DNA of 64,000 nt from IMG/VR virus record IMGVR_UViG_3300037963_004147, positions 1-64,000 of that record, one strand, 5' to 3'. The notes beneath the pieces are model-generated. The model did not search any database, was not told the origin of the DNA, and worked only from the letters and a program-made list of their open reading frames with translations. Numbering within the stretch: position 1 is the first letter of the stretch; every line of letters begins with the position of its first letter. Of the stretch, positions 21,021-48,000 are shown in pieces. The DNA comes from a virus. Position numbers and translations under genes: made by a program.

Positions 21021-21034
21021 TAAAAGTAAAAATC

Positions 21035-21268
21035 ATGCCAGCAAAAAAAATAAAAGCAGCAAAGAAAAAAGGTACAATGCCTAAAAGTGTTACAACCTAT
21101 AAAAAAGGAGGATCAACAACAAAATCTGTAAAAGCCCCAGCAGGCTTTCATTGGATGAAAGATGGATCTGGATTTAAATTAATGAAACATTCAGGTAAAT
21201 TTAAAGCACATCCTGGAGGATCTCTTACTGCAAAATTTAAAATACAAAAAAGACATAAAAAGAAATAA
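21035..21268 (+). CDS. Small basic protein
   Basis: 77 aa, Lys-rich; YKKGGS linker followed by a KAPAGFHWMK...H cassette. Confidence 0.7.
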   Translation: MPAKKIKAAKKKGTMPKSVTTYKKGGSTTKSVKAPAGFHWMKDGSGFKLMKHSGKFKAHPGGSLTAKFKIQKRHKKK

Positions 21269-21269
21269 A

Positions 21270-28400: not shown

Positions 28401-29086
28401 CATATGTAAATTTAAATCCTTTAACTTGTTCATACTTTCAATTAGAACAAATACCACCAAGCTATATTGTAGGTGGTATATGGAGACATAATTATAGATG
28501 TGATCTTTTTGCTAATTACTATGGTACAGATTATCCATGGGAAATTGAGTTGATTGAGAATTCAGGGCAAAACGTAAATACAGTACGTAGTATTGAGTAT
28601 CAATTAGAATCTTATGTTTATAAAGGAGATATGTTTAATGGTTGTGGAGATGATAGATGGCATGATTTAGATTTTAATTTTGATGAAGCTATTTTACATA
28701 ATACTGAACAAGTATCTGGGTTACTTAAATTAAATCTTACCCCTAAAGAAGATCCAATAACTGGATTAAGCTATCCAATAATTAATCCTAACTCAATTGA
28801 TATTTTATATTCTAAAGTAGAACAGAAGTATAGATTTAATCAGTTCTTTGATATTACAAATGATAGAGGTGAGTTCTCTAATGCTGAACAAGAAATATTT
28901 AATACTGCATGTAATGGATATGTAAGAAACTTAAATGAGTTAAACCTTAATTATAATAAAGCTGTTGATCAACGTAAAAAGTTTAGACATTATTATAATA
29001 GCGTGGTTTTACGAAGAGTATTATCAAATGATAGGAAAATGCTCTTAAAATTAGTAAATTCAAAACTTAATTTGTCATTTAGATAA
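22490..29086 (+). CDS. Tail stabilisation / muzzle protein (crAss-like, P22 gp10-like beta-propeller) with insertions
   Basis: 2198 aa; N-terminal FAKGMSKD..NAAN, VYWDDGLNPSRTLN, FMRDEQYAFFI, FTFHSPE, WTVSYDP..KAWISFHDW. Confidence 0.8.
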   Translation: MAKQNKSTKYNLQGSSIETNSFAKGMSKDIYKGVVPKTMWGHARNAANNSVDGDIGIIGNEPANLECGRVPYTVIGTIHKQGDHWIIYSTDDISSEIGLFDDSKCEYKTLVNDPCLSFNRQFLITGAAKENYDCTWQVYWDDGLNPSRTLNLDDIPYIQVVTSPPNDPCVIYEDTDKLDCEKIRLAPLLDIPCIDLSKSTDGGQLRNGSYQAYIAYTLNDQKVTDYIGVSQIQSLFAHESNDGGLDVKVSNLDKEFEEYELVILSDNQGQKVAKKIGTYSTEQTDINIDFIDPALVSVPLNLLFQRSPAYEKSESMYVVNDYLIRQGPTEQFDFNYQPLANEIKTRWVVAEYNADYYYKGGNKTQFMRDEQYAFFIRWIYNTGERSSSYHIPGRDPDPSSQNQYSQNITPNPGDLGQNSGVNVISNSGLEYNFQVYNTASVTQAGLNIPTGDGGTVIAKGKMGYWQSTEKYPATKPEIWADLCGKHIRHHKMPTEELHESLHLCANDGSTIRLLGVEFDNIARPVDNDGNVITNIIGYEILRGSREGAKSILAKGIYRNMRAYKVPEGDQGMLGESINETILYPNFPYNSLHGDVYHWFDSAALGISGDGNIGGALTQAFIADPFPRTDGCDDFMDSITDYPPLRLTKRDFFTFHSPELMFKRPFLNAYETRIYGAYGGISEGHFIKSELHPQNKLLRNSGAIIGGILGIGYAIGQMQGKKERNYTKASTQTIPFDPYYIQAGASNGSNMPVPPVSLFPVSPVWVGTTATMTANNPGTTAANQIMDTVGGVGELITGGALSNAFINTLGSIEANLNLQPGFSGGQDNYTYKKEDDAAQLPAPMQLVMGAIYAREKMADGAQIVIDSLYNMVSAEDFAYKHNSHGFYSDYFRGNVGDVFRVRNTASNYLGSSFQIFGENHLGNPSHKINNLFRPDTVAIQTLSPSQGGAYLPYPSSMGAPIDKSLYVIGGDGDASTPGMIGTSFGNEYLKSPQRKQFKDINALYGALKFNFDNQYGQLEGIKQVRMAGCTYFIDNTAAAIPGQIYRTTPIFSGDTYLNRYTEKVIMPIFTDFLLGQPDQFPFNYLQRVNIPYPRYWMNTRKYDTTALADALFGLLNPQNLIGALLTGGGTLSSLWENALPGDLFYLDRGEGSCVQGALSMFSNKGANPMFAMRYGYMYTHCNGILDFYVESEVNLANRDWTDVPEGRHYDTFRYNNTDDLFQAEIIKKDNLYKYDYSLSASRFVTNLTSGGAIQPRDYDPLIAETCFTNYPKRLIYSLQAQEEAKKDYWRVFLANNYRDFKDKVNVIKPINKNGAVIFFPYQSPQMFQGVDTLQTDMGTKITIGDGGLFNQAFQNLVNSDMANEYGSCESQRGIINTPYGFFFISQAQGKIFQQQGQTLNPISNQGMKWWFNKYLPSSLVKQFPELEYHTLGDNPVVGVGCQVIYDINDDIVYFCKKDYKLKEEHIGSIEFDAEQGVFVTVDTPPDVATPSDVAEGKQPNTSSLIQQSAIKNEQKFATGDIIPDPDLDDPIIVDDNWMPQPITGIEITIGDPFYFDDCSWTVSYDPKVKAWISFHDWHPELCMPSINHFLTTKTLPTTTPQCPPGYSFNSETGMCENLLDVQNLATVTVDELPSQAVGGGCPPGYTFNPVTNTCENITVVPIICGGTIFNVVEGLDNPAYGQYGTKFYEDATLRPKPIEAIGSPQQLKDNGGAGNILNYSTLPAGTTPWDRLNQAGVWTTNSGGTHDPVGQWIGFVVCIEISETKTYSVGIAGDNKVRFGVDGDQYVVIDTPDVDNFRSWHVIPFELTAGTHIISLEGKNDGSVASFAAEVYDADITTLQAITTEAALSAVTVFTTKDLPGSGATFTLGDPNDPTTPSGCNCPDGFVLSPCGDELQCVSIDTVPAESGCSCPDGYTLVFPDYLGNYIESEGDCDKEPICRKVDCECPDPPIPGLFPTLTGMCDNLFLVNSPTYVNLNPLTCSYFQLEQIPPSYIVGGIWRHNYRCDLFANYYGTDYPWEIELIENSGQNVNTVRSIEYQLESYVYKGDMFNGCGDDRWHDLDFNFDEAILHNTEQVSGLLKLNLTPKEDPITGLSYPIINPNSIDILYSKVEQKYRFNQFFDITNDRGEFSNAEQEIFNTACNGYVRNLNELNLNYNKAVDQRKKFRHYYNSVVLRRVLSNDRKMLLKLVNSKLNLSFR

Positions 29087-32000
29087 TGGAAAAGAAATTT
29101 ACAAATATGGAAAGGCGAGGTTTACCAGGTGGACCTAATGAAGTATTCTCTTATATTACAGGTGTATTTTCAACAGAAGGTTATAAAAAAGATAGCCCTG
29201 ATATAAATAACTTATTTAATATTATTGATTCTTCAGATATTTCTATGAAGGATGTAGAGTTTCCTGTTATGGGTTATGATGAATTAGGTAACTCACAACT
29301 TATGATGCCTGGTGGAGAATATAAATTTCCAGGAAATCAAGTGCTTGAAATACCAATGGCACAAAATGGTAATGGAGAATTTAGAGATTTTAAAGGTATT
29401 CCTTTTTTAAGTTCTATAGCTGCAGGAGATTTTTTAAATAATCAACATTATAATAGTAAATTAGCTGACTTATATAGATACTATTCTGGTACACCATTAG
29501 AAGATAATATTCTTCAAGTTAGTAATACTAAACCTGCAAAATCAAAAGATTCAGATGTTAAATATATATCACTAAATAAAAATCAACAGCTTGTTCAAGA
29601 AGTTATTGATAATTATAATAGAGTTAGTGATGGAAATTTTTATACTACAGAAACTAGACCTGATTTAATACTAGATGCAAGTGATAATGAAAGACAATTA
29701 GATAAAAATAATTATAAAGTTACAGGCTATAGAGAAGTAGATAATATTGATGATTACCAATTAAATGCTATTGGTAATTATATTACAGGATTTGGGGAAG
29801 ATGAAAAGGGTGCATATATATCTTATTATGATAAGTTTGACCAAGCCGGAGGTTTAGGTGGTAGTATAAACATTGGTGAGCAATTAGGTTTAACTAAACC
29901 TTTTGAAATATATGATAGGATATATGTAGAAAAAGATAAAGATTCAGGAAAATATATTCAAAAGCAAAATGGTGGAGATGTTATAGCACCCGGTGATGGA
30001 TATGAATATGTTGAAGATAATGGAAAATATTATACACGTAAGAAAGGTAGCAAAAATTGGACTGAAGCTAAAGGAAAAGCATTAGCGAATATAAAGTATA
30101 AAATTTATAATATAGGTGATGATCCAATTTCTCAGTCAGAAAAAGATGCTAAAGTTATAGAAAGAATGCGTAGCATTTTACCTGACATTAATAATCTTGG
30201 TTTTGGTGATGAAGGATATTGGTCTGGGGAGTTTGAAGATATGAGTCCAGAAATGCAGCAAATTGTATCATATGGAAATAGTCTTGGTAATGGTGCAATA
30301 GATCATGATCCTAATTCTCCTGAAGGTAAAGCTTTTGAAAAATATGCTAGAAGAATTGCTTCACCAGAGGCGTGGATGAGATTATATCCTGAAACAATGG
30401 GTAAAATATTTGATCCAAATAATGATCCAGATAAGTTCAAGTCTATTAAAAAGGAGTGGGGTAAAGCATCTCCAAAAGATGTAGAGCTTTCACAAATGGA
30501 TGCAACATCTTTTAGTCTAGGTTCAGAAGAACAAATGATAGATGCAGGAAAAGATTATGAAGCACAAGAAAATTATTTTGATGAAATAAATGAAGCATCA
30601 ACACAAGCACAGTACAAACGGGATGAGGAATATAGAATAGCACAAGAGGCACAAGAACTTGAAGATGGAGTAGATAGATTTGGAAATCCAATACCTCAGT
30701 GGAAGTTAGCAGGGTATGATAATCCTGATGATTATTATAATTATTTACAAGAAGGAGATCTTGATCCTATTATTGATGCTGTAGAACCTTACATTACACC
30801 TATACTAGAAAGCCCTATACAAAATCTTAATCCATTTAATACTAGTTCTGATAGAGGTTTTAAAGGCTATGTAAGTGATATTTTAAACTTTGTACCTGAC
30901 TATAGTAATGAAGAAAGTAGAGATGCTGCATTATTAAGAGCAAGACAAGAAGGTCTACCTTCAATTAAATATAAAGGTGAACGTTATAGTACAGCAACAG
31001 ATATGCGTCCTGGGCAAGAAGCACAAGCTATGGGTATGGATATAGAAGGGAAACATCCTGTAGTAGTTAATTATTATCCTGTTGGTACAGAAGGAATGTT
31101 TCCTAGTCATATAGAAGCATATTCTCTTGATGATCCAAATCTTCAAATAAATCCTTGGCCTACTGATACTGACAAACCTATTTTTGATACAGATAACTAT
31201 CGTAATAGACGTATAAGTAATCAAGATCAAGATAGACAGAGTAAAACTATATATCTTACTGATGATGAATTTGATCACTTTAAAAAAGTAACTGGTGAAT
31301 ATAAGGGAAAAAACTTTGTTGAGGGAGAATTAACTCCAGACAGATATGATTTTTATGCACAAAATTGTGCTAAAGGAGTATGTCAAGCTTTAAACATTGG
31401 TCCTAGAAAAGGTACATCATGGCTTCATGATGCAACACTACCTTTTCAAAATATGGCATATGGAATAGGTGCATCAGATATGTCAGCTAGAGAGGTATTA
31501 ACTCAACCCAATTTAGTGTTTAGTGAAATTGATGATCAATTTAAAGGACGTGTTCAAAATACAACGGGGAGAGCGGGTCAAACTGGACGTGATGGCAACT
31601 ATGTAAAAAGTCAACTAAAAGATGGTAAAGGAACAGTATGGAAGCCATACACTGATCCTGCATTTGCTGTATTAAATGCTGAAAATTTAGTTGGTGATAA
31701 ACATACAGCATATGTTCAAAAAGGTTTAGATGAAATTTTTCAAAGCAATGATGTTTTAAAGAATGATCCTGAAACTAAAAAATTATATAATAAATTTAAA
31801 AGTAGTTCATTTAAAGATGGTAAGTGGGATGCTACATATGGTCAAGAAGGAAGTGATACAAGAAATTTAAGAAATAGAATTTTACAATTAAATAAAGAGG
31901 GTAAAATTAATCTTGAAATAGATCCAGAAATAAAGAGTGATTTTAATATGTATAATAGGACTGATACTCCTGGAGAAACTTTACTAAATGCTGCTGGAGA

Positions 32001-32352
32001 TGCAATATACTCAGGACTAACAGATCAAAGAAAAGGTGGAGAATTAGAAAAAGTACTTCAACAATCAATTTCCAATATTGAAAATTCTGACAATACACTA
32101 ATGAAAAAACATGAGGGCATACAAAGATTAGTGGATGCATATAATTCAATGGTTCCTGATAAATTTAAAAAGGGTGGTCCTGTTTTAAGTGATAATGTAA
32201 AACTTTATCAAATGTATATTAATGGAGATAAAGAAAATTCAAAAGCAAAAGAAGTATATGATAAACTTAATAGAGTTTACTACAATAAAGCTAAAGAAAA
32301 AGGTATGTCTCCTCAAAATTATATAATGAGTTATGTTATTGGCACAAGCTAG
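29086..32352 (+). CDS. Modular cargo-like virion protein with permuted papain-like peptidase domain
   Basis: 1088 aa; cassettes separated by AQNG/QNGG/RKGG/KKGG; H675 (PSHIEAY) precedes C761 (YDFYAQNCAKGVCQAL). Confidence 0.65.
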   Translation: MEKKFTNMERRGLPGGPNEVFSYITGVFSTEGYKKDSPDINNLFNIIDSSDISMKDVEFPVMGYDELGNSQLMMPGGEYKFPGNQVLEIPMAQNGNGEFRDFKGIPFLSSIAAGDFLNNQHYNSKLADLYRYYSGTPLEDNILQVSNTKPAKSKDSDVKYISLNKNQQLVQEVIDNYNRVSDGNFYTTETRPDLILDASDNERQLDKNNYKVTGYREVDNIDDYQLNAIGNYITGFGEDEKGAYISYYDKFDQAGGLGGSINIGEQLGLTKPFEIYDRIYVEKDKDSGKYIQKQNGGDVIAPGDGYEYVEDNGKYYTRKKGSKNWTEAKGKALANIKYKIYNIGDDPISQSEKDAKVIERMRSILPDINNLGFGDEGYWSGEFEDMSPEMQQIVSYGNSLGNGAIDHDPNSPEGKAFEKYARRIASPEAWMRLYPETMGKIFDPNNDPDKFKSIKKEWGKASPKDVELSQMDATSFSLGSEEQMIDAGKDYEAQENYFDEINEASTQAQYKRDEEYRIAQEAQELEDGVDRFGNPIPQWKLAGYDNPDDYYNYLQEGDLDPIIDAVEPYITPILESPIQNLNPFNTSSDRGFKGYVSDILNFVPDYSNEESRDAALLRARQEGLPSIKYKGERYSTATDMRPGQEAQAMGMDIEGKHPVVVNYYPVGTEGMFPSHIEAYSLDDPNLQINPWPTDTDKPIFDTDNYRNRRISNQDQDRQSKTIYLTDDEFDHFKKVTGEYKGKNFVEGELTPDRYDFYAQNCAKGVCQALNIGPRKGTSWLHDATLPFQNMAYGIGASDMSAREVLTQPNLVFSEIDDQFKGRVQNTTGRAGQTGRDGNYVKSQLKDGKGTVWKPYTDPAFAVLNAENLVGDKHTAYVQKGLDEIFQSNDVLKNDPETKKLYNKFKSSSFKDGKWDATYGQEGSDTRNLRNRILQLNKEGKINLEIDPEIKSDFNMYNRTDTPGETLLNAAGDAIYSGLTDQRKGGELEKVLQQSISNIENSDNTLMKKHEGIQRLVDAYNSMVPDKFKKGGPVLSDNVKLYQMYINGDKENSKAKEVYDKLNRVYYNKAKEKGMSPQNYIMSYVIGTS

Positions 32353-32376
32353 TTTATTAGCAAATGTCCATATTTA

Positions 32377-32389
32377 TTTGTATATTATA
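32377..32389 (+). promoter_or_regulatory. Candidate late promoter TTTGTATATTATA
   Basis: Identical to 10904-10916; ends 7 nt before the ATG of 32397. Confidence 0.6.
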
Positions 32390-32396
32390 ATGTATT

Positions 32397-35300
32397 ATGA
32401 AGTCAAAAAAAGTAAATAAAAAAAGTTTATACCAAGAAGGTGGTCCAATGGAAGGAATGCCTCCATCAGTTGAAGATATGCCTGCAGAAGAACAAGCTAT
32501 AAATTTACAGGAAGAAATTACAGCTATGTTAGAACAAGGTGTATCTATGCCTGATATAATTAAAGGTTTAGCAGAAAGAGGATTTTCAGATGAAGAGATT
32601 ATAGAAGTTTTAGTATCTACAGGTGTACCTGAAGAGGAAGTGGTGACTGTAATGAATCAGATGAGTGAAGGATCTCAAGAAGAGATGCCTCCTGCTGAAG
32701 GTGAAGAACAAATGGTAGAAGGTCCTCCTCCACCACAGGCTATGCCACCACAGGCTATGCCACCTGAAATGGCAATGGGTATGCCGCAACCAATGATGGA
32801 AGATGGTGGTGAAGATCCTGTACCTGGAACTAGAGATTTTACTACACATTTTACAAATGCTTTTTCTCCAAACGTATTGAGAGAACAGCCCGTGTATGAT
32901 CCATCTACAGATCCTAATCTTACCAAAACATACATGACAGATAAAGATGGCAACATCACTGGACAAACTTATGTACGTGCTGGAAAAACTTATAATACTA
33001 GAAAGTTAAATAAACTGTTTCAAAAGGGAAAGATTCCTGGTGAGTCTTTTTATGATGGCCAATACCGTGAAGGTGGCGAAGGTGGAAATAATCCTTATGG
33101 GGCAGATGTCTATAAAGATATAGAATTAATATACCCGGATGGATCAATCCAGACACAAAGCTTAAATGAAAAAATGTTTAAGTCTGGTTATATTGATTAT
33201 AAAAAACCTGTTAAGAAAAATTTTTCAGATGGTACTTCTAAAACTCAATATAGATATAATCCAAAAGGAATAGATGGTCTTCCAAGAGTAAACTATAATT
33301 ATACTGGTTCTGTACAATATGGTGGAGAAGAATTACCTGAAGCTAGAACAGGTATGGGTCTTGATAGAGATCAGCAAGGTTTAGCAGGAAAAATGCTAAA
33401 ATATAGTGATGGTAGTTTAAATCAATTCTTTTCAGATAGAGATGGTTATAGAGCAAACCCATTAGCAGATTATACTCCTGTACAACTTGATGAAGGAACT
33501 CCAGGTGAAGGTCTAATGAAGATGATTCAATTTGGTCAAAATTTATTTAGTGGTGATATAGATCCTGAAACCGGTTTTATGAAAGGTTCTTTTAGAGATA
33601 GAAAGAGAAAAAACAAAGCACAAAAAGATGCACTTGCAAGTACATATGACTATAATGTAAAGTTTGATCCTAACGATCCAAATAAACCTGAAGATTACCA
33701 TACAAGTTATAAAAGTTTATATGAAGCATCTCAAGGAGAGATGCCATTAAGAACTAAAGATCAATTCAAAGAAGATGTGCAAAAATATAGCCGTATTGAT
33801 TTTGATCCAGAAAGTCAAAGATATAATACTTTTTTCTCTGATAGAGAAATAGACTTTGAAAATGTTCCTTCAAAATATAGAGAAGATTTGCAAGATAGAT
33901 ATAATAAATCTGAAGAACTTTCAAAATTTGTAGGTAGAGTGGGATCACTTACAGATGAAGATAAAACAAAGATGACTAACATTGGTAAAGATTTAGTAGA
34001 TTTTCAATCAAACCAAGATATGCCAGAAGATACTAAATTTGGTGTAGATGAATCAGGCAATGCTGTTTATTATAATCCTAATTTAGTTGGTGAAACAGGA
34101 ACTCAAAATTTTGTTGATAATACTGCAGGTTATATGTCAGGTAATAAATTTTTTGATTTTGGTGGCTTAGATGGAAAGAAGGCTGGAGGATCATTTGATA
34201 ATGAAGGATTTAGAGCACTTCCAGAAAAGGTTCAGATGAAAATTATGAAAGCTCAAAATGGTAACGGTGAAGAAAGAGGATTTGTAGAAGAAGATTTAAA
34301 TATACCTCAACCTAAGATGGATGCTTACATGAATTATTTAGATCAAAAAGCTGCACATGAGAAAGAGCTACAAGAAGTTCAAGCTATTAGGCAAAATATT
34401 GGGCAAAGAGCTACAGATCTTGGAACCGCAAATGCTTCACCATCAGAGGTTGGTTTATCAAGTAGTCTTGTTCGTAGTGTAGACGAATTAGGGTTTGGAT
34501 GTAATACATACTCTTGTCAAATAGCTAGAGATGCAGGTGTTACAATTCCAGATGGTGCCCCACCTGTTACAATTAATAAAAGAACTTATGAAGCAGGAGA
34601 TAAATTGCCAATGATACCAGGTAATGCTCAATTTAATTCTTACGCTACAAAATATTTAGGTTTTGAACTTTTACCTAAAGGTACTTTACCAACTGAACCT
34701 GGAGACTTAGGTAGAGGTCATATATATAATCAAGGTCCTGGTGGCCCAAGTAGTGGTTCACAACATAGTTACATTTTAGGAACTGATGGTAAATTTTATA
34801 ATAATCCAGGTAATGTTACAAGAGGATATATGGAGTATGATCATACACCTACAGAACAGTATTATACAACTGATTCTGGAGTAATGAGATATGTTAGAAA
34901 TTTACCAGCTACAGAAAAAGCAATGAATGAAGCTTTGGCTGCTTATGAAGCATTACCAGAAGATCAACTACGGAGACTTAAAACTTTACAACCTGAACTT
35001 TTAGCTGGAGCTGCAGATACTCAACCTGGTGCTTTAGCACAAATGGAATATAAAGATGTTCAATTACCGGAAGTTTCTAAAAGAGAAATGAGAAGGTTAA
35101 AAAAGGAAAACCCAGAATTGTATAGACTTTATGAGAATCCAGAATTATATAATGAGCAACAAAAAGCTCAAGCTTTAATTCAATATGATCCAAGATATAG
35201 ACAAATGATAGATGCAAGTATAACTGCATCTAGACAATATGGTGGGGGAGATATTCAAATGAATCCTTATCAAGAATTATTAATGAATCTACAACAAAGA

Positions 35301-35441
35301 AAAAACCAGCTGAATCCTTTACATAAACACAGAGTTGATTTTGATTCTGTATATAAAAAACGTGGAGGACAAACTGTAGATTTAGATATCAATACAATAG
35401 CAAAATTAATATCCGCTGGAGCAGACATTAAAATATTATAA
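32397..35441 (+). CDS. Modular cargo-like virion protein with NlpC/P60-like domain
   Basis: 1014 aa; acidic Pro/Met-rich N-terminus; multiple xxGG linkers; C702 (GFGCNTYS), PGDL, H790 (QHSYI). Confidence 0.65.
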   Translation: MKSKKVNKKSLYQEGGPMEGMPPSVEDMPAEEQAINLQEEITAMLEQGVSMPDIIKGLAERGFSDEEIIEVLVSTGVPEEEVVTVMNQMSEGSQEEMPPAEGEEQMVEGPPPPQAMPPQAMPPEMAMGMPQPMMEDGGEDPVPGTRDFTTHFTNAFSPNVLREQPVYDPSTDPNLTKTYMTDKDGNITGQTYVRAGKTYNTRKLNKLFQKGKIPGESFYDGQYREGGEGGNNPYGADVYKDIELIYPDGSIQTQSLNEKMFKSGYIDYKKPVKKNFSDGTSKTQYRYNPKGIDGLPRVNYNYTGSVQYGGEELPEARTGMGLDRDQQGLAGKMLKYSDGSLNQFFSDRDGYRANPLADYTPVQLDEGTPGEGLMKMIQFGQNLFSGDIDPETGFMKGSFRDRKRKNKAQKDALASTYDYNVKFDPNDPNKPEDYHTSYKSLYEASQGEMPLRTKDQFKEDVQKYSRIDFDPESQRYNTFFSDREIDFENVPSKYREDLQDRYNKSEELSKFVGRVGSLTDEDKTKMTNIGKDLVDFQSNQDMPEDTKFGVDESGNAVYYNPNLVGETGTQNFVDNTAGYMSGNKFFDFGGLDGKKAGGSFDNEGFRALPEKVQMKIMKAQNGNGEERGFVEEDLNIPQPKMDAYMNYLDQKAAHEKELQEVQAIRQNIGQRATDLGTANASPSEVGLSSSLVRSVDELGFGCNTYSCQIARDAGVTIPDGAPPVTINKRTYEAGDKLPMIPGNAQFNSYATKYLGFELLPKGTLPTEPGDLGRGHIYNQGPGGPSSGSQHSYILGTDGKFYNNPGNVTRGYMEYDHTPTEQYYTTDSGVMRYVRNLPATEKAMNEALAAYEALPEDQLRRLKTLQPELLAGAADTQPGALAQMEYKDVQLPEVSKREMRRLKKENPELYRLYENPELYNEQQKAQALIQYDPRYRQMIDASITASRQYGGGDIQMNPYQELLMNLQQRKNQLNPLHKHRVDFDSVYKKRGGQTVDLDINTIAKLISAGADIKIL
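32730..32764 (+). repeat. 15-bp in-frame tandem repeat (CCACCACAGGCTATG x2.3; PPQAM)
   Basis: Read directly from the sequence. Confidence 0.9.
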
Positions 35442-35443
35442 AG

Positions 35444-38400
35444 ATGGCGAAAGTAAAAATAAATAGTTTACCTGATGGTTTTGAATTAGTAGATGGTAAG
35501 GTTAGACAAAAAAAATCACATGGTGGTGGTATTACCGGAGATCAAAGTGATTATGGTTTAGTTACTTATGGTTCTACAAATATGTCATCAGGCCCCGATG
35601 ATACAGATGTAAGATATAGTTTATCTTCTGTACCAAGAGAAGAGGCAAATATAGAAGCTGAAGGTGGGGAAACTGTTTTAACAGATTTGAATAATGATGG
35701 AAGCTTTGGTCTTTATGATATAAAAGGACCAAGACACAGTAGTGGTGGAGTTCCAATGTTTTTGCCAGAACAATCATTTATATATTCTGATACAAATGAT
35801 TTGAAATTTAATAAATCAGAGCTTGAGGATTTTGATATTTCATCAAGAAAGAAAATGACTCCTGCTAGTATATCTAGAAAGTATCAACTTAATAAATACT
35901 ACGGTTTATTAAATGATGAATATGCTGATGATATTCAAGCTAAAACAGCTGAGTTAATGTTAGATAAAAATAAAATGAGTTTATCTAAATTAGCATTTAC
36001 TCAGGAAATGAAAAAAGATTTTGAAGAAGGTGTGCCTTTAGCATCACATCCTTATCTACAATCTATTGGAGAAGATCCAATAGCTTTTACTTCACAGGTT
36101 GAGCAAATTTCTATGCAACAAGCTCAAGATCAAACTATAATGGGTATGCCACCAGATCAACAAGCTCAATTGATGGCAATACAACAAATGCTAGAACAAC
36201 AGCAAGGTATGGCACCTGAAGGTATGGAAAATCCTGCTGCACAAGAAATGCAAGCTCCTGTTATGGATACTGCACAAGATGGAACGGAATTCACTGCAAA
36301 CAATCAAGGTGCCAATCAATGTGGGCCTGGTGAAGTATATGATTTTATGCAGCAAAAATGTGTACCTAGTGGTGGTATAGATCAGTCTGGAGCAGGTTAT
36401 GATAACTTAACAACTGATCCAGGTCAACTTACAGCTAATCTAATAAACGCTGATGCCAATAATTTAAATGTTAATAATGATCCAAGTGCAACATTTAATC
36501 AAGTTGCTAATATGGGTAATAACATTCTTGACCGAGATTCTGAAGATCCTAATGCTCCTGTAGATCCTGCTGCTCCAGAGGTTACACTTGATAAAGGTGA
36601 TTTTGAAGATAAAGCTGGAAGATTATATAATAGAATTGCAGGCAGTAATCAATTAAAACAATTTACTGATCTATCAACAGGAGCTATTGAAATGTTTGAT
36701 TCATTTAATAAAAGAATGAATAAGCAGACTAATTTACTTACTGATAAACAACAAAATGCTAAGCTTATGGCCCATAATCAGTTTGGAACTAACTTTGATA
36801 AAATGGGCAAAGAAGGGTTTACTGATGTTAATACAGGTTTAGATAAAAGAATTATTGCTCCTGATGCTAATGCACCTTCTGGATTTAATAACTATATGAA
36901 GTTTGGTCAAGATGGAATGGAAATTCTTGATGAAGCAGCATATGGAATAGAAATACCTAAAGCACAAGATGGTAATGGCGAAGACTCAGGAATGAATCAA
37001 TCGTATGTGTTTACTGATCCTGGCAGTGGGAAAACTATTACTTTAACAAGACAACAAATAATTGATGCATTCCCAACACTTAAGGATGAAACAGCATTTC
37101 AATTTTATTTAACAAATAATAATATGACTCCTGCAAATTCTGATGATGCACCAGAAGGAGGAGAAAAAGAAGAAAAAGTAATTACTGTTGATGATGACGG
37201 TAAAAAACTTAAAGTTACTGAGGTTACTATTTATGATAAGAATAGACAAGAACTTAAAAAGATTTATAAAGATTCAAATACAGGTGAAATAATTGAAGGT
37301 GCCTTAGTTAAAGAAGGTAAATTAAATAGACCTAAGTTCCAAAGTAGAGTTGATACAAAAGGTGGCGGTACATATTATGGAGAATATGATTTAAGTGAAG
37401 AAGGAAAACAAGAAGACTTTGAACAAAGATTTCCTTGGGTTAAAGATTTAAAAGGTTATGACTATAGTAAAGGAAATGCTGCTTGGGTTGGAGAGTTTCA
37501 AAAAGAGTATGAAAAGCGTATGTATGAAAGCCTTAAGGAAAGAGGTTTAGAAAAAGATTATGTACCATACTTTAAAACTAAAAGTAAAGCTTCCTTTATA
37601 AAGAAGAATCCGTGGGCTAAAGATATAGACTTTGGGGGAATGAAAAATAAGTCTGGAGATTGGTATGATTATAGAGATGGAGAAGGCTTTGATAGTAAAC
37701 TAGGAGCACATACATATAGTGCCCCTCTTTATAAAGCGGAGGATCCCCTTAATTTACCAGAACCTTGTCCAGCTTGTCCAGAAGGATATGAAAGACAACC
37801 AACTGCTGATGATAAATGTAACTGTGAATTAAAAGCAGTAACAAAACTTGATGTTCCGGATATAGTTGATAATTATGTTCCGCCTAGAGCAGACTGGTGG
37901 TCACAAGATGTAATTAAAGCAAAAGCAATTGCAGACAGGGAAAGAAAAATGCTATTGCCATATCAACCACCTGTTAGAAGAACTTCTTATGATGTTGTAT
38001 TAGAAGATCCAACTAGAGCAATTGCTGCAATTAATGAACAATTAAATATTAATAGTCAAGCTGCAGGTGCATTTGGAGGACCTCAATCATTACAAGCAAG
38101 AACTGCAAATTTACAAGGTCAAGCTGCATTGAATATTGCAAATGAAGTAGCTAGAGTTAATCAAAGAAATGTTTCAACAATAAATCAAGGTTTAGCTCAG
38201 CAAGCTCAAATGGATCAGATGGCTAATATGGAAGAGGATAGAAGGAATGTAAAAATGTATGATGATACTCAAAAAGTTTTACAAACTTATATGGATGAGA
38301 AAAACTTTGACAGAGAGCAATATGCCGATGCTATAGCTAATGCAATAACTAATAGAGCTAATACATATAATCTTAATTCTATACAAGATTATTATAACAT

Positions 38401-38731
38401 TGATCCTGAAAGTGGTGGAATGATTAAGCTTACTAATACTAAAGCATTACAGCCTGTTGCTCAACCAGGTGAGTATGATTTTATAAATAACTATGCAGAA
38501 GTAGCAAAAAGATATAAAGCTGCAACTGGTGCAGATCCAACAAATGAGATAATGCAAGGTTTACTAAATCAACAAGCTCAACGTAATGCAGGTATTCAAC
38601 CAAAGCAAACTAATTTGCAGGCTGCGGTAGCAAATAATCCATTTGGGTTAGGATATCAAGGAGGTGGTAAAAAAGGAAAAGAATTAAAGAGGTGGGCATC
38701 TCCATTCTATGTAGGAAAAACAGGAATGTAA
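35444..38731 (+). CDS. Cargo-like virion protein (conserved crAss-like N-terminal domain)
   Basis: 1095 aa; ANIEAEGGE...GPRHSSGGVP...FIYSD domain, AQDG repeats, Q/N/A-rich helical C-terminus. Confidence 0.65.
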   Translation: MAKVKINSLPDGFELVDGKVRQKKSHGGGITGDQSDYGLVTYGSTNMSSGPDDTDVRYSLSSVPREEANIEAEGGETVLTDLNNDGSFGLYDIKGPRHSSGGVPMFLPEQSFIYSDTNDLKFNKSELEDFDISSRKKMTPASISRKYQLNKYYGLLNDEYADDIQAKTAELMLDKNKMSLSKLAFTQEMKKDFEEGVPLASHPYLQSIGEDPIAFTSQVEQISMQQAQDQTIMGMPPDQQAQLMAIQQMLEQQQGMAPEGMENPAAQEMQAPVMDTAQDGTEFTANNQGANQCGPGEVYDFMQQKCVPSGGIDQSGAGYDNLTTDPGQLTANLINADANNLNVNNDPSATFNQVANMGNNILDRDSEDPNAPVDPAAPEVTLDKGDFEDKAGRLYNRIAGSNQLKQFTDLSTGAIEMFDSFNKRMNKQTNLLTDKQQNAKLMAHNQFGTNFDKMGKEGFTDVNTGLDKRIIAPDANAPSGFNNYMKFGQDGMEILDEAAYGIEIPKAQDGNGEDSGMNQSYVFTDPGSGKTITLTRQQIIDAFPTLKDETAFQFYLTNNNMTPANSDDAPEGGEKEEKVITVDDDGKKLKVTEVTIYDKNRQELKKIYKDSNTGEIIEGALVKEGKLNRPKFQSRVDTKGGGTYYGEYDLSEEGKQEDFEQRFPWVKDLKGYDYSKGNAAWVGEFQKEYEKRMYESLKERGLEKDYVPYFKTKSKASFIKKNPWAKDIDFGGMKNKSGDWYDYRDGEGFDSKLGAHTYSAPLYKAEDPLNLPEPCPACPEGYERQPTADDKCNCELKAVTKLDVPDIVDNYVPPRADWWSQDVIKAKAIADRERKMLLPYQPPVRRTSYDVVLEDPTRAIAAINEQLNINSQAAGAFGGPQSLQARTANLQGQAALNIANEVARVNQRNVSTINQGLAQQAQMDQMANMEEDRRNVKMYDDTQKVLQTYMDEKNFDREQYADAIANAITNRANTYNLNSIQDYYNIDPESGGMIKLTNTKALQPVAQPGEYDFINNYAEVAKRYKAATGADPTNEIMQGLLNQQAQRNAGIQPKQTNLQAAVANNPFGLGYQGGGKKGKELKRWASPFYVGKTGM

Positions 38732-42026: not shown

Positions 42027-45000
42027 ATGTCAGATTTTGAAAAAGATGTAAAGAGTAATGCCGTTAACTCAATAGCACCTGGTGTTCCTCAAGATATGTT
42101 TGTTTTTGAATCTATTTCTGATTTAGAGACTCCACCTGATATTGCTGAGTTTGATCCAAATCTAGATCAAGGATATTTAGATATGCTATCTGCAGCTGCA
42201 CCAATTATAAATCAATTTTCACCTAATCCAACATCTAATATGAGGTCCCCTTTTCCTGGACCTGCAACAGATACATATAATCCTGTAGCACAAAAAGTAC
42301 CAAAAGCTAGTGGTAATGAATCTATAATGAATAAGTTTAGGCAAATAGGTGAGGTTGCAAAAAACTTAAATCCTGAAAATCCTGAAAATAAAAATACAAC
42401 TTTCGGAAAGAGTATGAACTCTATAAAAATTGCAGATCCTATATTTTCTAGTATAAGAGAAAGTCAATTTGATAGATACTATGAACATGGTGAGTTTGGT
42501 AAATTAGGATGGCACCCATATGCAGATAATGAAACTTATTATAATGAAAATTCATCATGGTGGGATAATGCAGGAAGAATGTTTGGTGAGATGGGTAGAC
42601 TTGCATGGACTGGTATGAAAGCCAACTATAGTAGTTGGGGCTCTGCAGATTCAATGGATCTTAATGCTGCTGTAGAATTTGAAGATGCAATGAGAATTGG
42701 TAGTTCTACAACAGGTGGTTTTGGTGGAGGTCTTAATAATTTACTTCTTCAGTCTGGATATACATTTGGAATTATTGGTACAATTGCACTTGAAGAACTT
42801 GCAATGTGGGGAGCTACTGCGGCATTGGCTGCCGCAACTCCATTTACTGCTGGTGCTTCTGGTGCTGGTGCTGTTGCCACAGGTACAGCTGCTACTGTTA
42901 GAACAGGGTACAATATGGCTAAGTTAGCTAAACTTGGTAGAAGAATAGCTGATTCATTTGATGTTTCTAGAATGCTACGAGGAACAAGAAGCATGATGAA
43001 GAATATGAATAAAGCAGATAATGCTAGAGGTTTTTGGAATAGTGTAAGATCAGGAGGAAACGTACTTGGAAACTTTGTAGCTCCTGAAACTATGGCAGCA
43101 TTTAAAGCTCTTAAGTCAGCTGAAAAAGCAGGAGATAATCTTACATCAATGGCAAAAATTTCTAAAGGTGTAGGAGGATTTTATAGAGATCTTCGTTCAT
43201 TAAACTTTGCACTATCAGAAGGTAGAATGGAAGCTGGATCTACATATATGGATGTCTTGAACAGATCTATGGCTCAGATGAAAGAGAATAATTTAGCTGA
43301 AGGTTTAAGTGAAAATTTAACAGATTCTCAAATAGCAATGGCAGACGCAAGAGCTCAAGAAGCTGCATTTGCTACAACATCTTGGAATGCACCTTTAATT
43401 TATTTATCTAATCAATTGCTTCTTGGTAATTCTATGGGAGGTTTTAAAAGAACTCTTAATCAAGCAATGCGTGATAATATTGAGGGTGTTGGAAGACGTA
43501 TTCTTAAAACTAAAGCTGCAGTTAAAACTGGAAAAGATGGTGCAAAGACAATTGCAAAAGATGTCTTTGAAGATGTAGGTGAAAGTTTTATGAATTATAA
43601 ATACTTATATAAATCTGTAAAAGCTGGAGGAATAAAAGGTGGAGCAACAATGGCTGCAGGTGCAGGTTTAAGATTTTTTGCAGCGAATGTTGGAGAAGGT
43701 TTACAAGAAGTTTATCAAGAAGCTGTAGCTAAAGGTGTAAGTGATTACTATACTGCTTTAGCCACAGATCCAATGGCAGGTGGTAGTGAGTTATTTCAAA
43801 CTTCAGCACTAGCAGGTTTATCAGAACAATTTAGCGGTCAAGGTCTTCATACTTTTATGTCTGGTTTCTTGATGGGTGGTGTAGTAGCAGGTCCTCAAAA
43901 GTTAGTATTTCAAGGTATGCCAATGTTATATCAAAAAACATTTAACAAAAAGGAATACGCAGAATATAAAGCAAATAAAGAAAAATTAGTTGCAGACTTA
44001 GTAAATACATATAATAGTGCATGGAATTCTCAAGCAGATGATGTTCAAAATATGTTTGACTCAACTAAATTAAACTTTTTAAATCAAAAGCAAGAAGCAT
44101 CTGAAATGGTTGCAGCACAACTAGAAGATTCAATGTTTAACTTTATTGATGCAAAAGATAATGCTAAATTCCAACAGTTAAATACTATATTTAAAACAGG
44201 TAGACAAGATTTTTACAGAGAGCAGTTAGAAGATTATTTACAATTAACAGACGAAGAACTTGCAGAAGCATTTCCACAAGAAGCTTCTAGAGCTAAGTCT
44301 GGTAAATTAAGATCAACCATTCAAGATCAGATAAAGAAGATTGATGAAATGGAAGTGACTTATGAAAAAAATTTAGAAGACTTTGTAAATCCATTTGATC
44401 CAAAAGCATTTAAACCAGGTTCAAGAGAACAGAATGATGAAGCATTAAAACATTTTGCATTTGAACATGCTAGAATGTTATATCTATTTACTAAAGATGG
44501 ATTCCAAAGAGCTCTAGAAAGATCTGAAAGTATCTTTAGTGAATTAGAATCTGATCCTGTTATTTCAAAAATGGCAGCTAATGATGTAACTGTATTACTT
44601 AATAAAGATACATTACAACAAGAGATATCTCAATTAAAAGCTGAGATTCCAGGTTTAGGTGAAGCAGGAACAAAAAGACTAAAAAAGGATAAAGAGAAAA
44701 AATTAGAAGCACTAGAAGCTGTAGCTGATGTTTTATATAATGAAGAATATCAAACAAAAACTGGAAGGTTTGATAGAAGACGTATACAAAAATTAACACC
44801 AACTATATTAAACTATTTAAAAACTGTAGCTAGATCTAAAGATGCTTTTGTAAATCCAGAACTTATTCAAGAAACAATTAAAAAGATTGTAGATCATAAC
44901 CATCTTAGTAATAGACAAAAGGTTTATGATAAGAGTATTCAGTTTTTAAATAACCCTGATCAGTTTGATGCAATAGTTAGAAGATCTTATGAGTATTTAA

Positions 45001-48000
45001 AATATGCACATAAGAATCAACTTGAAATGTATGAAAAAGCTATTAGAAAATTTATTAATAAAAAAGAAATTAATCAGTTTTTAAATCAATTAGCTAAAGT
45101 AGGAGTTTATGCAGATATGAGTGAAACTTTAGAGTTTGCAGAGACTGGAAATATTGATAGTTTAACTGTATTCTATTCAGAGAGTGGTATGGTTAATAAA
45201 GTAAATGATCCTGAATTATTTGCCGAGATTCAAAATTTAATACAAACATATAGACAAACAGCTCAACCCCAAGTTCAATCAGATATAGCAGAATCAAAAT
45301 CATCAGAAGTTAAGAAGAGTAAAAAAGCTCAAGCTGTACAAGAAGAAGTTGATGAAATTTTAGAGGATGCTGAAATATCTGGACCAGAAGCTGAGGTTTA
45401 TGGTAAAGCAAAAGATGAGTCTCCAATTCTTGAAAAATTATTAAAACAAAAATATCAAGAGGTTAGAGCTTTTGCTATACAAAAAGGAGTTAAGAAAATA
45501 CCAAGCTTTAATGATTATATTAAAACACCTGCGGCACAATCATATATATCAGCATATGTAGCATTAAAGAAAATGTGGTATCAAACTTTAACTGGTATAG
45601 AGGATGAAGGAATTAGAATGGAAAGGTTTAAAAAAGACCAAGGTTTTTTATCATGGTTAAAGTTACAACAAACTAATGATAAAGTTGTAGATGTACTTTC
45701 TGTTACTAATACAAAATTTAATGACTTTATAAAAGGGATGGCTGAGGATGTAGGAAGTACTCCTGAGCAAGATAAAAAAAATAAAGTTGCGGGTCTTGAA
45801 GGTCCTTCACAAATTGTAGAAGTAAAGAGTACAGATGATCAAGGAAACCCTGTTACTTTCTATCAAATATTAGATAAGTTTGGTGAACCGGTTGCATATG
45901 AATTAACTGAAGAAGCTGGCTTACCAGTTGGTTTATCATTTACAGATTTAGGAAAAGCAAAACAAGCAAAAGCTAAGTTAGATGCATCTATTCCAGATAC
46001 TGCTGAAATGGAAATAAGAAACAGTAAAGGTGAAGTTGTTGAGAAGTTAGTATTTGGACAAGAGGTTATTGAAAAATCAACTGGTAATAAATACATTGTT
46101 GTTAGTACTCCTAGTAAATTATCAAAAGGAGGTAAATTATATTTATTTCCTGCTAGTCTTGCAGGTACAGTAACGCAATTGCAAGCAAGAAGAAATAAAT
46201 CAGAGAAAATAAATCCTGCTGATTTTGCGGGTAGATTTAAAGCATCAAGTTATTCTTTAACTGATGTTTCATTACCTGCTAATGTAAGTAAATTAAATAT
46301 TGATGAGGCAACTAAAATTCAATATCAACAAAATGGCAGATTTACAAAAGACAAAGAATGGGAAGGGAATTCAAAGAAAAGATTTCAGTTAATACTTCAA
46401 AATCTATCAGAAGAACAGTTTAATAAATTAGAAGTTGTAGTTAAAAGAAATATTGATGGAGGTAAAGTAACTCAAGAAAAATTTACATTTCCTGAAAAAG
46501 CACCAAATAGACTTATAAAAAGAACTAAACAATCATATAGTATAGCACTAAGAATACCGGCTGATATTATGAAAACATTGGAGCCTAAAATTTTAGATGC
46601 TGATTTAGCTCTTCCTGAAAATAATATCTTAGGTTATATACCAAATACAGATGTTCAGTTATATGATACTAATGGAGCAAGAATAAATCCATTAAATATA
46701 ACAACTGATCAGATTGGAAATTTATTTCAAATTTCAGGCAAGACAAAAGAAAATGCAGCCAAAGAAATAAGAAGAAACTTTGCTATACAACAATCAATTG
46801 TAAATGATATAAATAAGAAGTTAGGTAAAGATGAGAGTGGAACTTTAACTTTAGAAGATATAGGTGGTGTTAACTTTGTAGCAACTGCAGGACAAATGCA
46901 GTTTTTACCAACAGGAGTCACTAATAAAATAGAAAACTTACAATATAATACCGTTGATGGTACAATGGTTATATTAGATAATGGCAATAATAGATTTGTC
47001 ACAGATATGACCGGTAGTGTAGAAGATCAAATTGATTTTGAAGATAAGGTTAAAGCTGATATGCAAGCTCAAAACACAAATATATTTGAGAATGCTAAGA
47101 AAGCTGGTAGATATGTAATGATTGTTAAGCAACCTAATGGAATGTTTTCTTACTTTCCAATCAAAACAGATGTTCTAGAAAAAAGTACATTAAATGATAT
47201 TGCTAATGAAATTATAGAAAGATCAGCATTAAGTCAAAAAGACAACACTAAAAAAATTGAAGGTGCAACAACTCCAGTTATTAATGACATGGAATTTAAT
47301 AGTGAGTTTAATCAAGAACTCAATAATAAATTTTATATTGCATCTACTCCTGGTTATTCATTTGATATTAATGTAAATGCAAATGGTGCAGTAGAATTAA
47401 GAGTTTTTGATAGAGACAATAAACAAGTTGTAAAATATATCCAAAACGATAAAGCTGCTATTGAAGCTTGGGGTAAAGTTGAAGATAAAACTCAACTTTT
47501 AAATGAATTATTTGAGAATGCTGATAAAAGTTTTAAAGAACAATATTCAAAAGTAACTTCAAAAACACCAGCTATAAGAAAGCAAGTTTTAAAAGATGTT
47601 GCTAATCTAAAATTAAATTTAGGATCTATAAGAAAAAGTTTTCCTGTAACAGCTTCAGCGTCAGAAATTGCAGAAACATCTGTAACAACTGTAGGTTCTC
47701 AAGTAAGAAAAGATTCTAAATTAAGAGTTAATATTAATGGTATAGATGTAAGCCAGATAGAAACTGCAGGAGTGTTTACTCCTAGTGAGGTATTTACAGA
47801 TGCAAATGGAAATCCTATACCTAAAGGTGGACCATTAACAACATCTTCAGAAAGTATGAATAATATTGAGATTGAAGGTGCTGAGTTAGACGCAATGTCT
47901 AAAGAAGATTTTGAAGCATTAAAAGCTGATAATTTTAAAGGTCTTACTGAGGCACAAATTACAGCTATTGCAATAAAACTAAGCGATCCTTCAAGTCTTA

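Follow-up and report, generated by a model that had tools for sequence, protein, structure and literature searches.

Few viruses of guts and oceans are as abundant as crass-like phages, whose particles carry megadaltons of protein cargo. The cargo proteins of crAss001, C1 (gp45) and C2 (gp46), are large, are encoded between the muzzle and virion RNA polymerase genes and are mostly disordered in the virion (PMC10172136). The portal, the tail rings and the muzzle serve as docking sites for short structured pieces of gp45; the rest of the protein was not resolved, and no processing was reported (PMC10172136). In Cellulophaga phage phi14:2 the same genomic slot holds g068-g070, which the record lists as virion proteins confirmed by MS/MS (NC_021806). 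Polyvalent proteins combine unrelated enzyme and binding domains, wall-attacking domains included, within a single polypeptide that accompanies the DNA, and these domains are extensively shuffled (PMC5512222).

We analysed a 64,000-nucleotide stretch of DNA (the window; coordinates below are nucleotide positions in it, and all features are on the + strand) from a 115-kb, deep-branching marine crAss-like phage genome that is 99% complete by CheckV. A first-pass annotation had described three consecutive ORFs of this window as arrays of swappable cassettes separated by a short repeated motif, and had proposed that the motif is either a protease cleavage site or a docking tag.

Results

Genomic location of the probable cargo genes

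From terminase the genes run through portal, crass-type capsid protein and tail genes to a 2198-aa muzzle-like ORF, which is followed by cargo A, cargo B, cargo C, a fourth ORF and a 5082-aa ORF. ORF 4695-6002 is a scaffold candidate. The 5082-aa ORF contains a polymerase metal-binding motif and gave a BLAST match to phi14:2 g066 (E 2.5e-8). The three ORFs lie between the muzzle-like and virion RNA polymerase genes, which is the Crassvirales cargo slot and the position of the crAss001 and phi14:2 cargo genes. Judging from this gene order, the three proteins are probably carried in the phage particle.

Cargo A (29086-32352) encodes 1088 aa, of which aa 1-95 and the region from about aa 980 are conserved and the middle is variable. 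Cargo B (32397-35441; 1014 aa) consists of about 10 modules divided by motif sites. Cargo C (35444-38731; 1095 aa) is conserved at aa 1-253 and about aa 798-1095, again with a variable middle. Pfam and PHROG scans of these proteins and of the fourth protein gave no matches. The crAss_CARG1 profile, which represents the portal-binding domain of C1, found nothing in a six-frame search of the genome at E values up to 10, nor did Pfam detect this domain in the four proteins. There were likewise no matches when cargo B and C were compared with deposited phages by tblastn or when cargo B alone was scanned against viral contigs, and the cargo B alignment used as a profile against solved structures gave nothing useful.

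A junction motif is enriched in the cargo proteins

All of the motifs listed in the first-pass annotation were present in the three ORFs at the positions given there. A near-exact A-Q-(N/D)-G-N-G-E occurs once per ORF: as E-I-P-M-A-Q-N-G-N-G-E where the conserved N-terminal module of cargo A ends (29347-29379), in cargo B (34248-34271) and as E-I-P-K-A-Q-D-G-N-G-E in cargo C (36950-36982). Cargo C also contains the variant T-A-Q-D-G-T-E just past its conserved N-terminal block (36269-36289). The three near-exact copies differ in their synonymous codons, which rules out a DNA-level repeat as their source and indicates that selection acts at the protein level.

It had been cautioned that G-G also occurs by chance, and this proved correct. 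Cargo A, B and C contain 7, 11 and 13 plain G-G sites compared with about 7.9, 9.1 and 7.4 expected from composition, and enrichment of plain G-G was therefore rejected. Motifs qualified by their context, in contrast, were strongly enriched in the three ORFs. The [K/M]-A-Q-x-G forms, searched as [KRTMPQ][AF]Q.G, were found 4 times in the three ORFs versus 0.5 in shuffles, and 3 times versus 2.6 in the other 104 ORFs. The pattern [KRQEH]x-GG-[EQSDPGH] occurred 9 times versus 1.4 in shuffles, and the unified pattern hydrophobic-Q-x-G-[G/N/D/T] ([YFAMVL]Q.G[GNDT]) occurred 8 times in the three ORFs versus 1.3. We also trained a weight matrix solely on cargo genes from five other genomes. Applied to this genome, it marked 14 of 27 G-G sites within the three ORFs, compared with 21 of 140 outside them (4.4 versus 0.64 per 1000 aa).

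Five related genomes showed this excess in their cargo A, B and C as well, as did 120 homologues of cargo C, but it did not extend to the neighbouring large multidomain virion proteins of the same phages, as the muzzle, protein D and the giant polymerase were without the motif. Motif A has the consensus hydrophobic-(Q/K)-x-G-G with E, S, Q or P as the next residue, and motif B has the consensus E-(L/I)-P-(K/M)-A-Q-x-G-x-x-E, in which N, D or T can replace the second Gly. E-[LI]-P-[KM]-A-Q-x-G was present in 64 of the 120 cargo-C homologues (77 sites versus 24.7 in shuffles). The residues after G-G are E, S, Q, A, P and D; Pro directly follows G-G at 23 of 322 cargo sites, including two that are conserved in cargo A of all six genomes (6/6). 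A literature search on the motif strings and on crassvirus cargo processing found nothing relevant. From these data we conclude that the motif exists, that it is specific to these genes and that it is under protein-level selection.

Cassettes of cargo B

Motif sites are located at aa 15, 137, 226-230, 309, 589, 597, 619-625, 949 and 990 of cargo B. In an AF2 model the sites fell in coil or at helix ends, between confident islands at aa 35-90, 241-289, 459-510, 644-852, 888-939 and 997-1011, with the exception of an in-domain site at aa 782. Because the confidence of this model is low (mean pLDDT 44, with 65% of the model below 50), the placement of sites in coil is weak evidence.

A beta cassette (33063-33353; aa 231-308) has a G-G motif on either side. 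Its counterpart in P0016 and P0018 has 77-78% identity; outside this segment the two have no detected similarity to cargo B and carry cargo C-like segments. The cassette is present in P0014 as well, and G-G motifs mark both of its borders in three of the four contexts. A mini-cassette (34176-34271) consists of a G-G site, an 18-aa peptide and the second copy of motif B, with the same layout in L001, L005 and P0014. The peptide (34194-34247) lies between two motifs as described in the first-pass annotation, and a helix of the AF2 model (aa 610-620) ends at the A-Q of this motif B copy.

The invariant columns of its alignment and VIA-align structural comparisons identify a CHAP/NlpC-P60-like cysteine peptidase cassette (34383-34913; aa 663-839). 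It lies between the K-A-Q-N-G and R-Q-Y-G-G motifs, where an NlpC/P60 domain had been placed. Cys702 and His775 are invariant in nine homologues, in the Cys-before-His order of papain-like enzymes. The VIA-align matches to CHAP and NlpC/P60 enzymes were Lys2972 (8tw1; Z 8.7), Ly7917 (Z 8.3), LytE (Z 8.0) and MepS (Z 7.5), a range of Z 7.5-8.7 over 113-133 aligned residues with an rmsd of 3.6-5.1. A transglutaminase (Z 6.5) and the C39 domain of ComA (Z 5.2) ranked lower. No NlpC/P60-CHAP profile matched the cassette (Pfam E 0.01; CHAP search of the genome), and Foldseek returned no significant match for either cassette-bearing model, with E-values of 0.2 or worse for the cargo B cassette. Of Foldseek and VIA-align, only the latter gave usable fold rankings. 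Cargo B ends with a basic G-G site and a 22-aa C-terminal tail (35352-35438) that is among its most conserved pieces, with invariant columns at A1002, G1008 and K1012. Leptolyngbya phage Lbo-JY46 has similar sites and also a similar tail after a G-G.

Cassettes of cargo A

BLAST alignments between cargo A and its counterparts at five related loci were limited to aa 1-95/133 and aa 978-1085. Two basic G-G sites (32023-32181; aa 980-986 and 1026-1032) bracket the start of the conserved C-terminal module, and the second of these is a G-G-Pro. A 687-aa stretch comprising several modules is without any site.

Homologues, an AF2 model and VIA-align point to a His-before-Cys cassette (31003-31605; aa 640-840; His675 and Cys761) with a permuted papain-like fold. 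Among 12 sequences the His is nearly invariant and an Asn-Cys pair is invariant. The top four VIA-align matches, RID (5xn7; Z 7.7), TseH (6v98; Z 5.2), 3kw0 (Z 5.0) and YiiX (2if6; Z 4.9), are all circularly permuted papain-like enzymes, and the next match had a Z of 3.2. The ESM atlas placed IcsB_M and TseH clusters at 0.95. The cassette shows the conserved His before Cys and the permuted fold of the RID/IcsB, TseH and YiiX group, in a model with a pLDDT of only 65. A six-frame search of the genome with the TseH profile was blank and carries little weight since the control search was also blank. The cassette is housed in cargo A here and in L003, and in cargo B in the other relatives.

Cassette exchange and the positions of the motifs

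As had been proposed, the cassettes are swappable: motif-bounded cassettes occur in different proteins of related phages, and sequence comparison shows that they move between proteins. The claim that motifs fall at domain borders stood in part. The association is real, as BLAST segment ends are 1.5-fold enriched near motif sites, but it is only moderate because the cargo-C result depends on how the motif is defined and because the inserts lack an edge bias. For cargo C we found 567 homologues and aligned 120 of them. In this alignment insert borders were not enriched for unqualified G-G or A/F/Y-Q-x-G sites (ratio 0.93), whereas the context-qualified motif gave border ratios of 1.9-5.3, with the sites on the conserved side of the borders. 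Gain and loss exactly at the motifs, which the first-pass annotation had suggested looking for in orthologues, was found in the tiny proteins described below, and in P0006, an 88%-identical homologue, the insertions and deletions adjoin G-G; inside the cargo-C inserts there was no edge bias (3 of 13 versus 2.7 expected).

Four tiny basic ORFs of 77-104 aa (20488-21584) carry the same G-G sites. A 12-14-aa peptide is common to three of the four (E 1e-6 to 1e-3); two have it at the N-terminus, ahead of a G-G, and one at the C-terminus, behind a G-G, and this layout is conserved in G001 and G005. In one orthologue a piece of about 28 aa is missing, and the deletion is bounded precisely by two consecutive G-G-S. 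All three cargo proteins and two tiny proteins have leaders of 15-40 aa that end in G-G; the leader sequences differ. The G-G of the cargo C leader (aa 27-28) is invariant in 119-120 of the 120 aligned homologues. When the two papain-like cassettes were co-folded with a tiny basic protein as partner, the score was 0.15 (mark, 0.32), which counts neither for nor against an interaction.

Searches for a processing protease

No prohead protease of family S77 or S78 was found in the 99% complete genome, and nothing protease-like was seen in the head module. Searches of the genome for C48 (Ulp1/adenain-like) and C39 peptidases were also negative; the match of C39 domains to the cargo B cassette reached only Z of about 5 and so fell below the CHAP and NlpC matches. 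The Peptidase_C97 (PPPDE) profile was blank in the genome, and no PPPDE structure was among the fold matches listed for the permuted cassette, which may nevertheless be a distant relative of these enzymes among permuted papain-like proteins. Pfam and PHROG gave no zincin-like metallopeptidase match in the three proteins, and the only metallopeptidase-like domain of the genome is a DUF2201_N with a VWA in another genomic module. By predicted fold, the closest resemblance of both papain-like cassettes is to wall hydrolases or acyltransferases.

Discussion

Our leading explanation, to which we give slightly less than an even chance, is that these are modular polyvalent ejection proteins whose cassettes are joined by conserved, uncut hinge or docking peptides; we favour it over Gly-Gly-directed processing, which we regard as doubtful. 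Each cargo protein would be a string of small cassettes that are conserved independently of one another (CHAP/NlpC-like, permuted papain-like, beta and helical modules, and short terminal peptides), and motifs A and B would constitute a lineage-wide set of junction peptides that most likely stay intact. The Gly pair, or Asn/Asp, would end one element and provide a flexible hinge ahead of the next N-cap, such that the cargo could be stored partly disordered, like a chain of beads, and pass through the tail module by module. Motif B and the short peptides next to junctions may serve as handles for docking, either to parts of the virion or among themselves; we infer both the hinge and the docking roles.

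Several observations argue for this reading. Motif excess is a feature of the three cargo genes alone, in this phage as in five relatives, the cargo B sites fall in coil or at helix C-termini of the low-confidence AF2 model, the motif copies use different synonymous codons, and short peptides beside junctions (the cargo B tail, the tiny ORFs and the mini-cassette) are conserved. No capsid-maturing or G-G-cutting protease family was found, and the docking segments of crAss001 gp45 set a precedent for docking within the same viral order. Counting against this reading, no partner for any motif was identified, and leaders that all end in G-G, with this G-G invariant in cargo C, exceed the needs of a hinge and would suit a site that is recognised or cut. 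The peptide shared by tiny proteins, which precedes G-G when N-terminal and follows it when C-terminal, looks like a removable peptide, and two papain-fold cassettes reside in the same proteins.

These last points are what a polyprotein scheme would explain. Following assembly or ejection, a packaged cysteine peptidase, for which the permuted cassette (cargo A) and the CHAP-like cassette (cargo B) are candidates, would cut on the C-terminal side of G-G or of the motif B Glu. The products would be individual enzymes, small basic proteins and short peptides from leaders or tails. The leaders on three cargo and two tiny proteins, the conserved C-terminal tails that come after a G-G, the G-G on whichever side of the tiny-protein peptide meets the body and the conserved Cys and His of both co-encoded cassettes are all as expected if the sites were cut. 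Motif B ends in small-x-Glu, which recalls the S/A/G-x-E sites of phiKZ-type head proteases, and head-protein processing in T4 and phiKZ offers a likeness. A peptidase embedded in polyvalent proteins has been proposed as a processing enzyme (PMC5512222). Nevertheless, the S77, S78, C48, C39 and C97 families were not found in the 99% complete genome, and the best fold matches of both cassettes are not processing proteases. The conserved G-G-Pro sites speak against simple cutting after G-G, and the N, D or T that replaces the second Gly of motif B favours turns, unlike the needs of a Gly-Gly-specific protease. Furthermore, the 687-aa multi-module stretch of cargo A would remain uncut, none of the crAss001 cargo was reported to be processed (PMC10172136), and the N4 virion polymerase is packaged uncut. 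The first-pass proposals of a cleavage site and of a capsid-docking tag both describe putative roles. A specific form of the former, an adenovirus- or African swine fever virus-like maturation without a canonical prohead protease, in which a papain-fold peptidase in the cargo would cut cargo and protamine-like basic proteins at hydrophobic-x-x-Gly-Gly and free wall hydrolases, DNA-binding proteins and leader or tail peptides, is unlikely.

It is also improbable that the motifs are a generic linker grammar with neither partner nor cutting, made of ordinary end- and start-of-element signals and kept since illegitimate recombination succeeds only at neutral, flexible joints. Such a grammar would account for sites in coil or at helix ends (in the low-confidence AF2 model), for residues after G-G that are common at helix starts, for the indel exactly between two G-G-S in a tiny protein and those adjoining G-G in P0006, and for the 1.5-fold enrichment of segment ends near sites. 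However, motif B keeps about 10 positions in hundreds of divergent proteins, far beyond what a neutral linker requires; the cargo-C leader G-G is invariant, and the muzzle, protein D and the giant polymerase manage without the motif. An origin by chance, or from a composition rich in Gly, Gln and Lys, agrees with the plain G-G counts but was refuted for the context-qualified motifs by shuffling, as 0 of 100 composition-preserving shuffles reached their counts in the window or in the relatives. The matrix from other genomes also separates the sites, and we consider such an origin scarcely credible.

A peptide code at module joints, shared by hundreds of cargo proteins, provides concrete sites for mutation, mass spectra and cryo-EM maps, and accounts for the swapping of enzyme modules between cargo genes. 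If the sites are cut they would reveal a new maturation route for tailed phages, and if they dock they could be handles for loading foreign proteins into phage particles.

The proteins resemble crAss001 C1 and C2 in size and gene position, but there are three of about 1000 aa plus a fourth rather than two and there is no detected sequence similarity. The crAss001 paper describes no junction motif (PMC10172136). The phi14:2 proteins are shorter (420-593 aa), have no detectable homology to the cargo here and contain few similar sites, one of which, in g069, is a G-G followed by a 20-aa C-terminal tail. Polyvalent proteins have at least two unrelated effector or enzyme domains in shuffled architectures, as do the CHAP/NlpC-like, permuted papain-like, beta and helical cassettes described here. 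They differ in that the processing enzyme suggested for them is a zincin-like metallopeptidase, which we did not find in the three cargo proteins, and the paper mentions no conserved junction peptide, the word 'linker' occurring 0 times in its text (PMC5512222).

The hydrophobic-x-G-G sites in internal virion proteins are shared with two other systems, and it is there that cutting is established rather than hypothetical. Adenovirus adenain and African swine fever virus pS273R are clan CE (Ulp1-like) proteases that act in Gly-Gly-directed core maturation on small, basic, DNA-associated substrates and release short terminal peptides; here the clan CE protease was not found and some sites are G-G-Pro. 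The capsid-targeting sequences of T4 internal proteins and the cargo-loading peptides of encapsulins are short terminal peptides that bring cargo into an HK97-fold shell, those of T4 being removed afterwards. Unlike these systems, in which each cargo has one terminal tag, the cargo proteins of this phage carry many internal copies.

Gene order around the proposed cargo block

The viral contig is a single sequence of 114,909 bases with a CheckV completeness of 99%, and the window is its first 64 kb. The gene order starts with large terminase, portal and major capsid protein, the last being of crass type (Pfam Crass_capsid, E 6e-30); tail genes come next, and then a muzzle-like ORF of 2198 aa. 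Downstream lie cargo A (29086..32352, plus strand, 1088 aa), cargo B (32397..35441, plus strand, 1014 aa), cargo C (35444..38731, plus strand, 1095 aa) and a fourth ORF of 1077 aa, and the block ends with ORFs of 5082 and 1929 aa. Five related viral contigs retained the order muzzle, cargo A, cargo B, cargo C, fourth protein and giant. The muzzle-like gene overlaps cargo A by one base (29083-29089) and cargo B lies 2 bases from cargo C (35439-35446), a spacing suggestive of coupled translation within the cargo block. The structural gene block also includes a gene for an SbcD-like DNA repair exonuclease (17979-19196; PHROG 704, E 7e-45).

The 5082-aa ORF (42027-57275) shares its metal-binding motif, located in the ORF at aa 3862 (nt 53601-53630), with g066 of Cellulophaga phage phi14:2, an experimentally studied virion RNA polymerase, and the region around this site gave a BLAST match to g066 (E 2.5e-8); a PHROG search with both halves of the ORF gave no match. 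Phage phi14:2 divides the corresponding functions among three genes. The layout is that of phi14:2, whose record lists the products of slot genes g068-g070 as virion proteins on MS/MS evidence, and of crAss001, in which the genes from muzzle to polymerase encode cargo proteins gp45 and gp46 (PMC10172136). The phage is a deep branch: portal identity is 33% with Leptolyngbya phage Lbo-JY46 and about 23% with other crassviruses. We therefore infer the cargo role of the three proteins from gene order and do not regard it as demonstrated.

Enrichment of context-qualified motifs

The first-pass annotation had described the three cargo ORFs as cassette arrays punctuated by a short repeated motif, and all of the motifs that it claimed were found at the positions given. 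Two junction forms are distinguished here: motif A, hydrophobic-(Q/K)-x-G-G followed by E, S, Q or P, and motif B, E-(L/I)-P-(K/M)-A-Q-x-G-x-x-E. As it had also stated, A-Q-(N/D)-G-N-G-E recurs near-exactly, with one copy per ORF. Codon choice at the Ala, Asn, Gly and Pro positions differs synonymously among the three copies, so selection acts on the peptide and recent DNA duplication is ruled out as their origin.

When the three ORFs were compared with the rest of the proteome, context-qualified motifs were enriched, whereas G-G without context was not. The motif B core [KRTMPQ][AF]Q.G occurred 4 times in the three ORFs versus 0.5 in shuffles, and 3 times versus 2.6 in the remaining 104 ORFs. 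In five related genomes it occurred 19 times versus 3.0 in the cargo genes, and 0 times versus 2.2 in the muzzle, fourth and giant genes. Similarly, G-G preceded by a basic/polar context was found 9 times versus 1.4 here and 36 versus 8.4 in the relatives. These two motifs can be expressed as the single motif hydrophobic-Q-x-G-[G/N/D/T], for which the counts were 8 versus 1.3 here and 32 versus 7.8 in the relatives, with no enrichment in controls. A weight matrix trained only on other genomes marked 14 of the 27 G-G sites that the three ORFs contain versus 21 of 140 elsewhere. Across 120 cargo-C homologues from the database, the consensus E-(L/I)-P-(K/M)-A-Q-x-G was present at 77 sites versus 24.7 expected, in 64 of the proteins. 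Chance is thus excluded as the source of the motifs.

Cassette borders and mobility

In cargo A of the five related contigs, only the first 95-133 and the last ~100 residues are conserved; motif B marks where the N-terminal piece stops, and a basic G-G site where the C-terminal one starts. Motif sites split cargo B into about 10 pieces that agree with BLAST segment limits and with confident islands in the AF2 model. The statistical link between motif and module border was moderate: 91 of 300 clustered BLAST segment ends lay within 8 residues of a motif site versus 59 expected, and cargo A contains a 687-aa stretch with several modules and no motif site. In the cargo-C alignment, unqualified sites showed no excess at insert borders; context-qualified sites were 1.9- to 5.3-fold over-represented there, lying on the conserved side, and had no edge bias within inserts.

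Three observations show that cassettes move. The beta cassette of cargo B (78 aa) recurs at 77-78% identity within proteins that have no other detected similarity to cargo B, and has a G-G motif at both borders in 3 of 4 contexts. In this phage and one relative a His-before-Cys cassette is part of cargo A, and in the other relatives it is part of cargo B. Finally, among the tiny basic proteins, one orthologue lacks a ~28-aa piece whose limits are precisely two successive G-G-S motifs.

Enzyme cassettes and the search for a protease

Cargo B aa 663-839 contains an invariant Cys and His. Wall hydrolases of the CHAP and NlpC/P60 types gave its best structural alignments (Z 7.5-8.7), ahead of transglutaminases (Z 6.2-6.5) and then C39 double-glycine peptidase domains (~Z 5); no family recognised the cassette in sequence profile searches. 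Cargo A aa 640-840 has a conserved His, with Asn-Cys ~86 residues further on. Its structural model (pLDDT 65) matched four permuted papain-like enzymes above background: RID (an acyltransferase domain), TseH (a type VI wall-hydrolase effector), a Bacillus cysteine peptidase and YiiX. A language-model atlas pointed towards IcsB and TseH clusters. Neither the fold matches listed nor the genome profile search gave a sign of kinship with PPPDE/DeSI enzymes, from which Gly-Gly specificity would follow. As the ejected proteins of short-tailed phages usually include wall hydrolases, the cassette folds require no connection to the motif.

The head module contained nothing protease-like, and six-frame genome searches for the S77, S78, C48 and C39 families found none. 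A scan of 46 further ORFs identified, among the 25 of 32 families listed, ribonucleotide reductase, helicases, nucleases, an amidase and a metallopeptidase-VWA protein whose neighbours, in another module of the genome, are of MoxR type. The latter (DUF2201_N + DUF2201; ~83400-89300 of the contig, outside the window) neighbours DUF6915 and DUF6878, and DUF1287 and DUF2459 proteins are encoded elsewhere in the genome; some of these proteins may be papain-like or peptidase-related.

In the model, cargo B aa 27-91 (32475-32670) fold into three helices (pLDDT ~75); this small domain aligns with N-terminal domains of PEX14 (Z ~5), and similar segments seem, by eye, to recur in some homologues. Because PEX14 domains bind short linear motifs, it could be a motif reader. 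The cargo C N-terminal domain (35651-35818), in which a His is conserved and G-G pairs at aa 74 and 101 are invariant, was found in 120 of 120 homologues; in P0016 and P0018 its position is instead near the C-terminus.

How the junctions might work

The first-pass annotation had suggested protease cleavage sites or capsid-docking tags. Processing is argued for by the terminal peptides. Cargo A, B and C and two tiny basic proteins begin with mutually dissimilar basic leaders of 15-40 residues ending in G-G, which in cargo C is invariant in 119-120 of 120 homologues, and in cargo B, cargo C and g069 of phi14:2 a conserved C-terminal tail follows G-G. The position at which other crassviruses encode IHF-like proteins is occupied by four tiny ORFs of very basic composition (20488-21584, plus strand; 77-104 aa, 23-28% Lys+Arg in relatives), which may encode protamine-like internal proteins. 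Three of the four share a 12-14-aa peptide at one terminus adjoining a G-G site; where N-terminal, the peptide precedes G-G, and where C-terminal, it follows G-G, as in two relatives. Other points count against a cut immediately after G-G. Pro is the next residue at 23 of 322 cargo sites, two of them conserved in cargo A of 6 of 6 genomes, and the second Gly of motif B is replaced by Asn, Asp or Thr, a substitution more in keeping with a turn than with a tight pocket for Gly-Gly. In addition, no suitable protease was found in the genome searches, and no processing was reported for crAss001 cargo (PMC10172136) or for the N4 virion polymerase.

We tentatively favour a model in which each junction would act as hinge plus handle in a chain that remains uncut. 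Sites in the low-confidence AF2 model of cargo B lie at helix ends or in coil, and short pieces of crAss001 gp45 dock on the portal, rings and muzzle with disordered chain between them (PMC10172136); both would count for an uncut joint. Weighing these points, we place the hinge-plus-handle model ahead of processing, which we consider unlikely, and put last neutral linkers retained through recombination, which seem improbable.

Comparison with known systems

We found no paper describing the junction peptides. The present analysis contributes the arguments from Pro after G-G and from Asn, Asp or Thr, the absence of the usual protease families from a complete genome, fold assignments for both papain-like cassettes and the arrangement of terminal peptides in the tiny basic proteins. 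It also extends the motif system to a cultured cyanophage, Lbo-JY46, the nearest cultured relative, whose cargo-slot genes (PP438436.1, 75260-82844) have a few of the same sites, a similar C-terminal tail following G-G and a lytic-transglycosylase-like signature. By sequence, the three cargo proteins do not belong to the C1 family of crAss001; they fit the crassvirus cargo slot by position and the concept of polyvalent proteins (PMC5512222).
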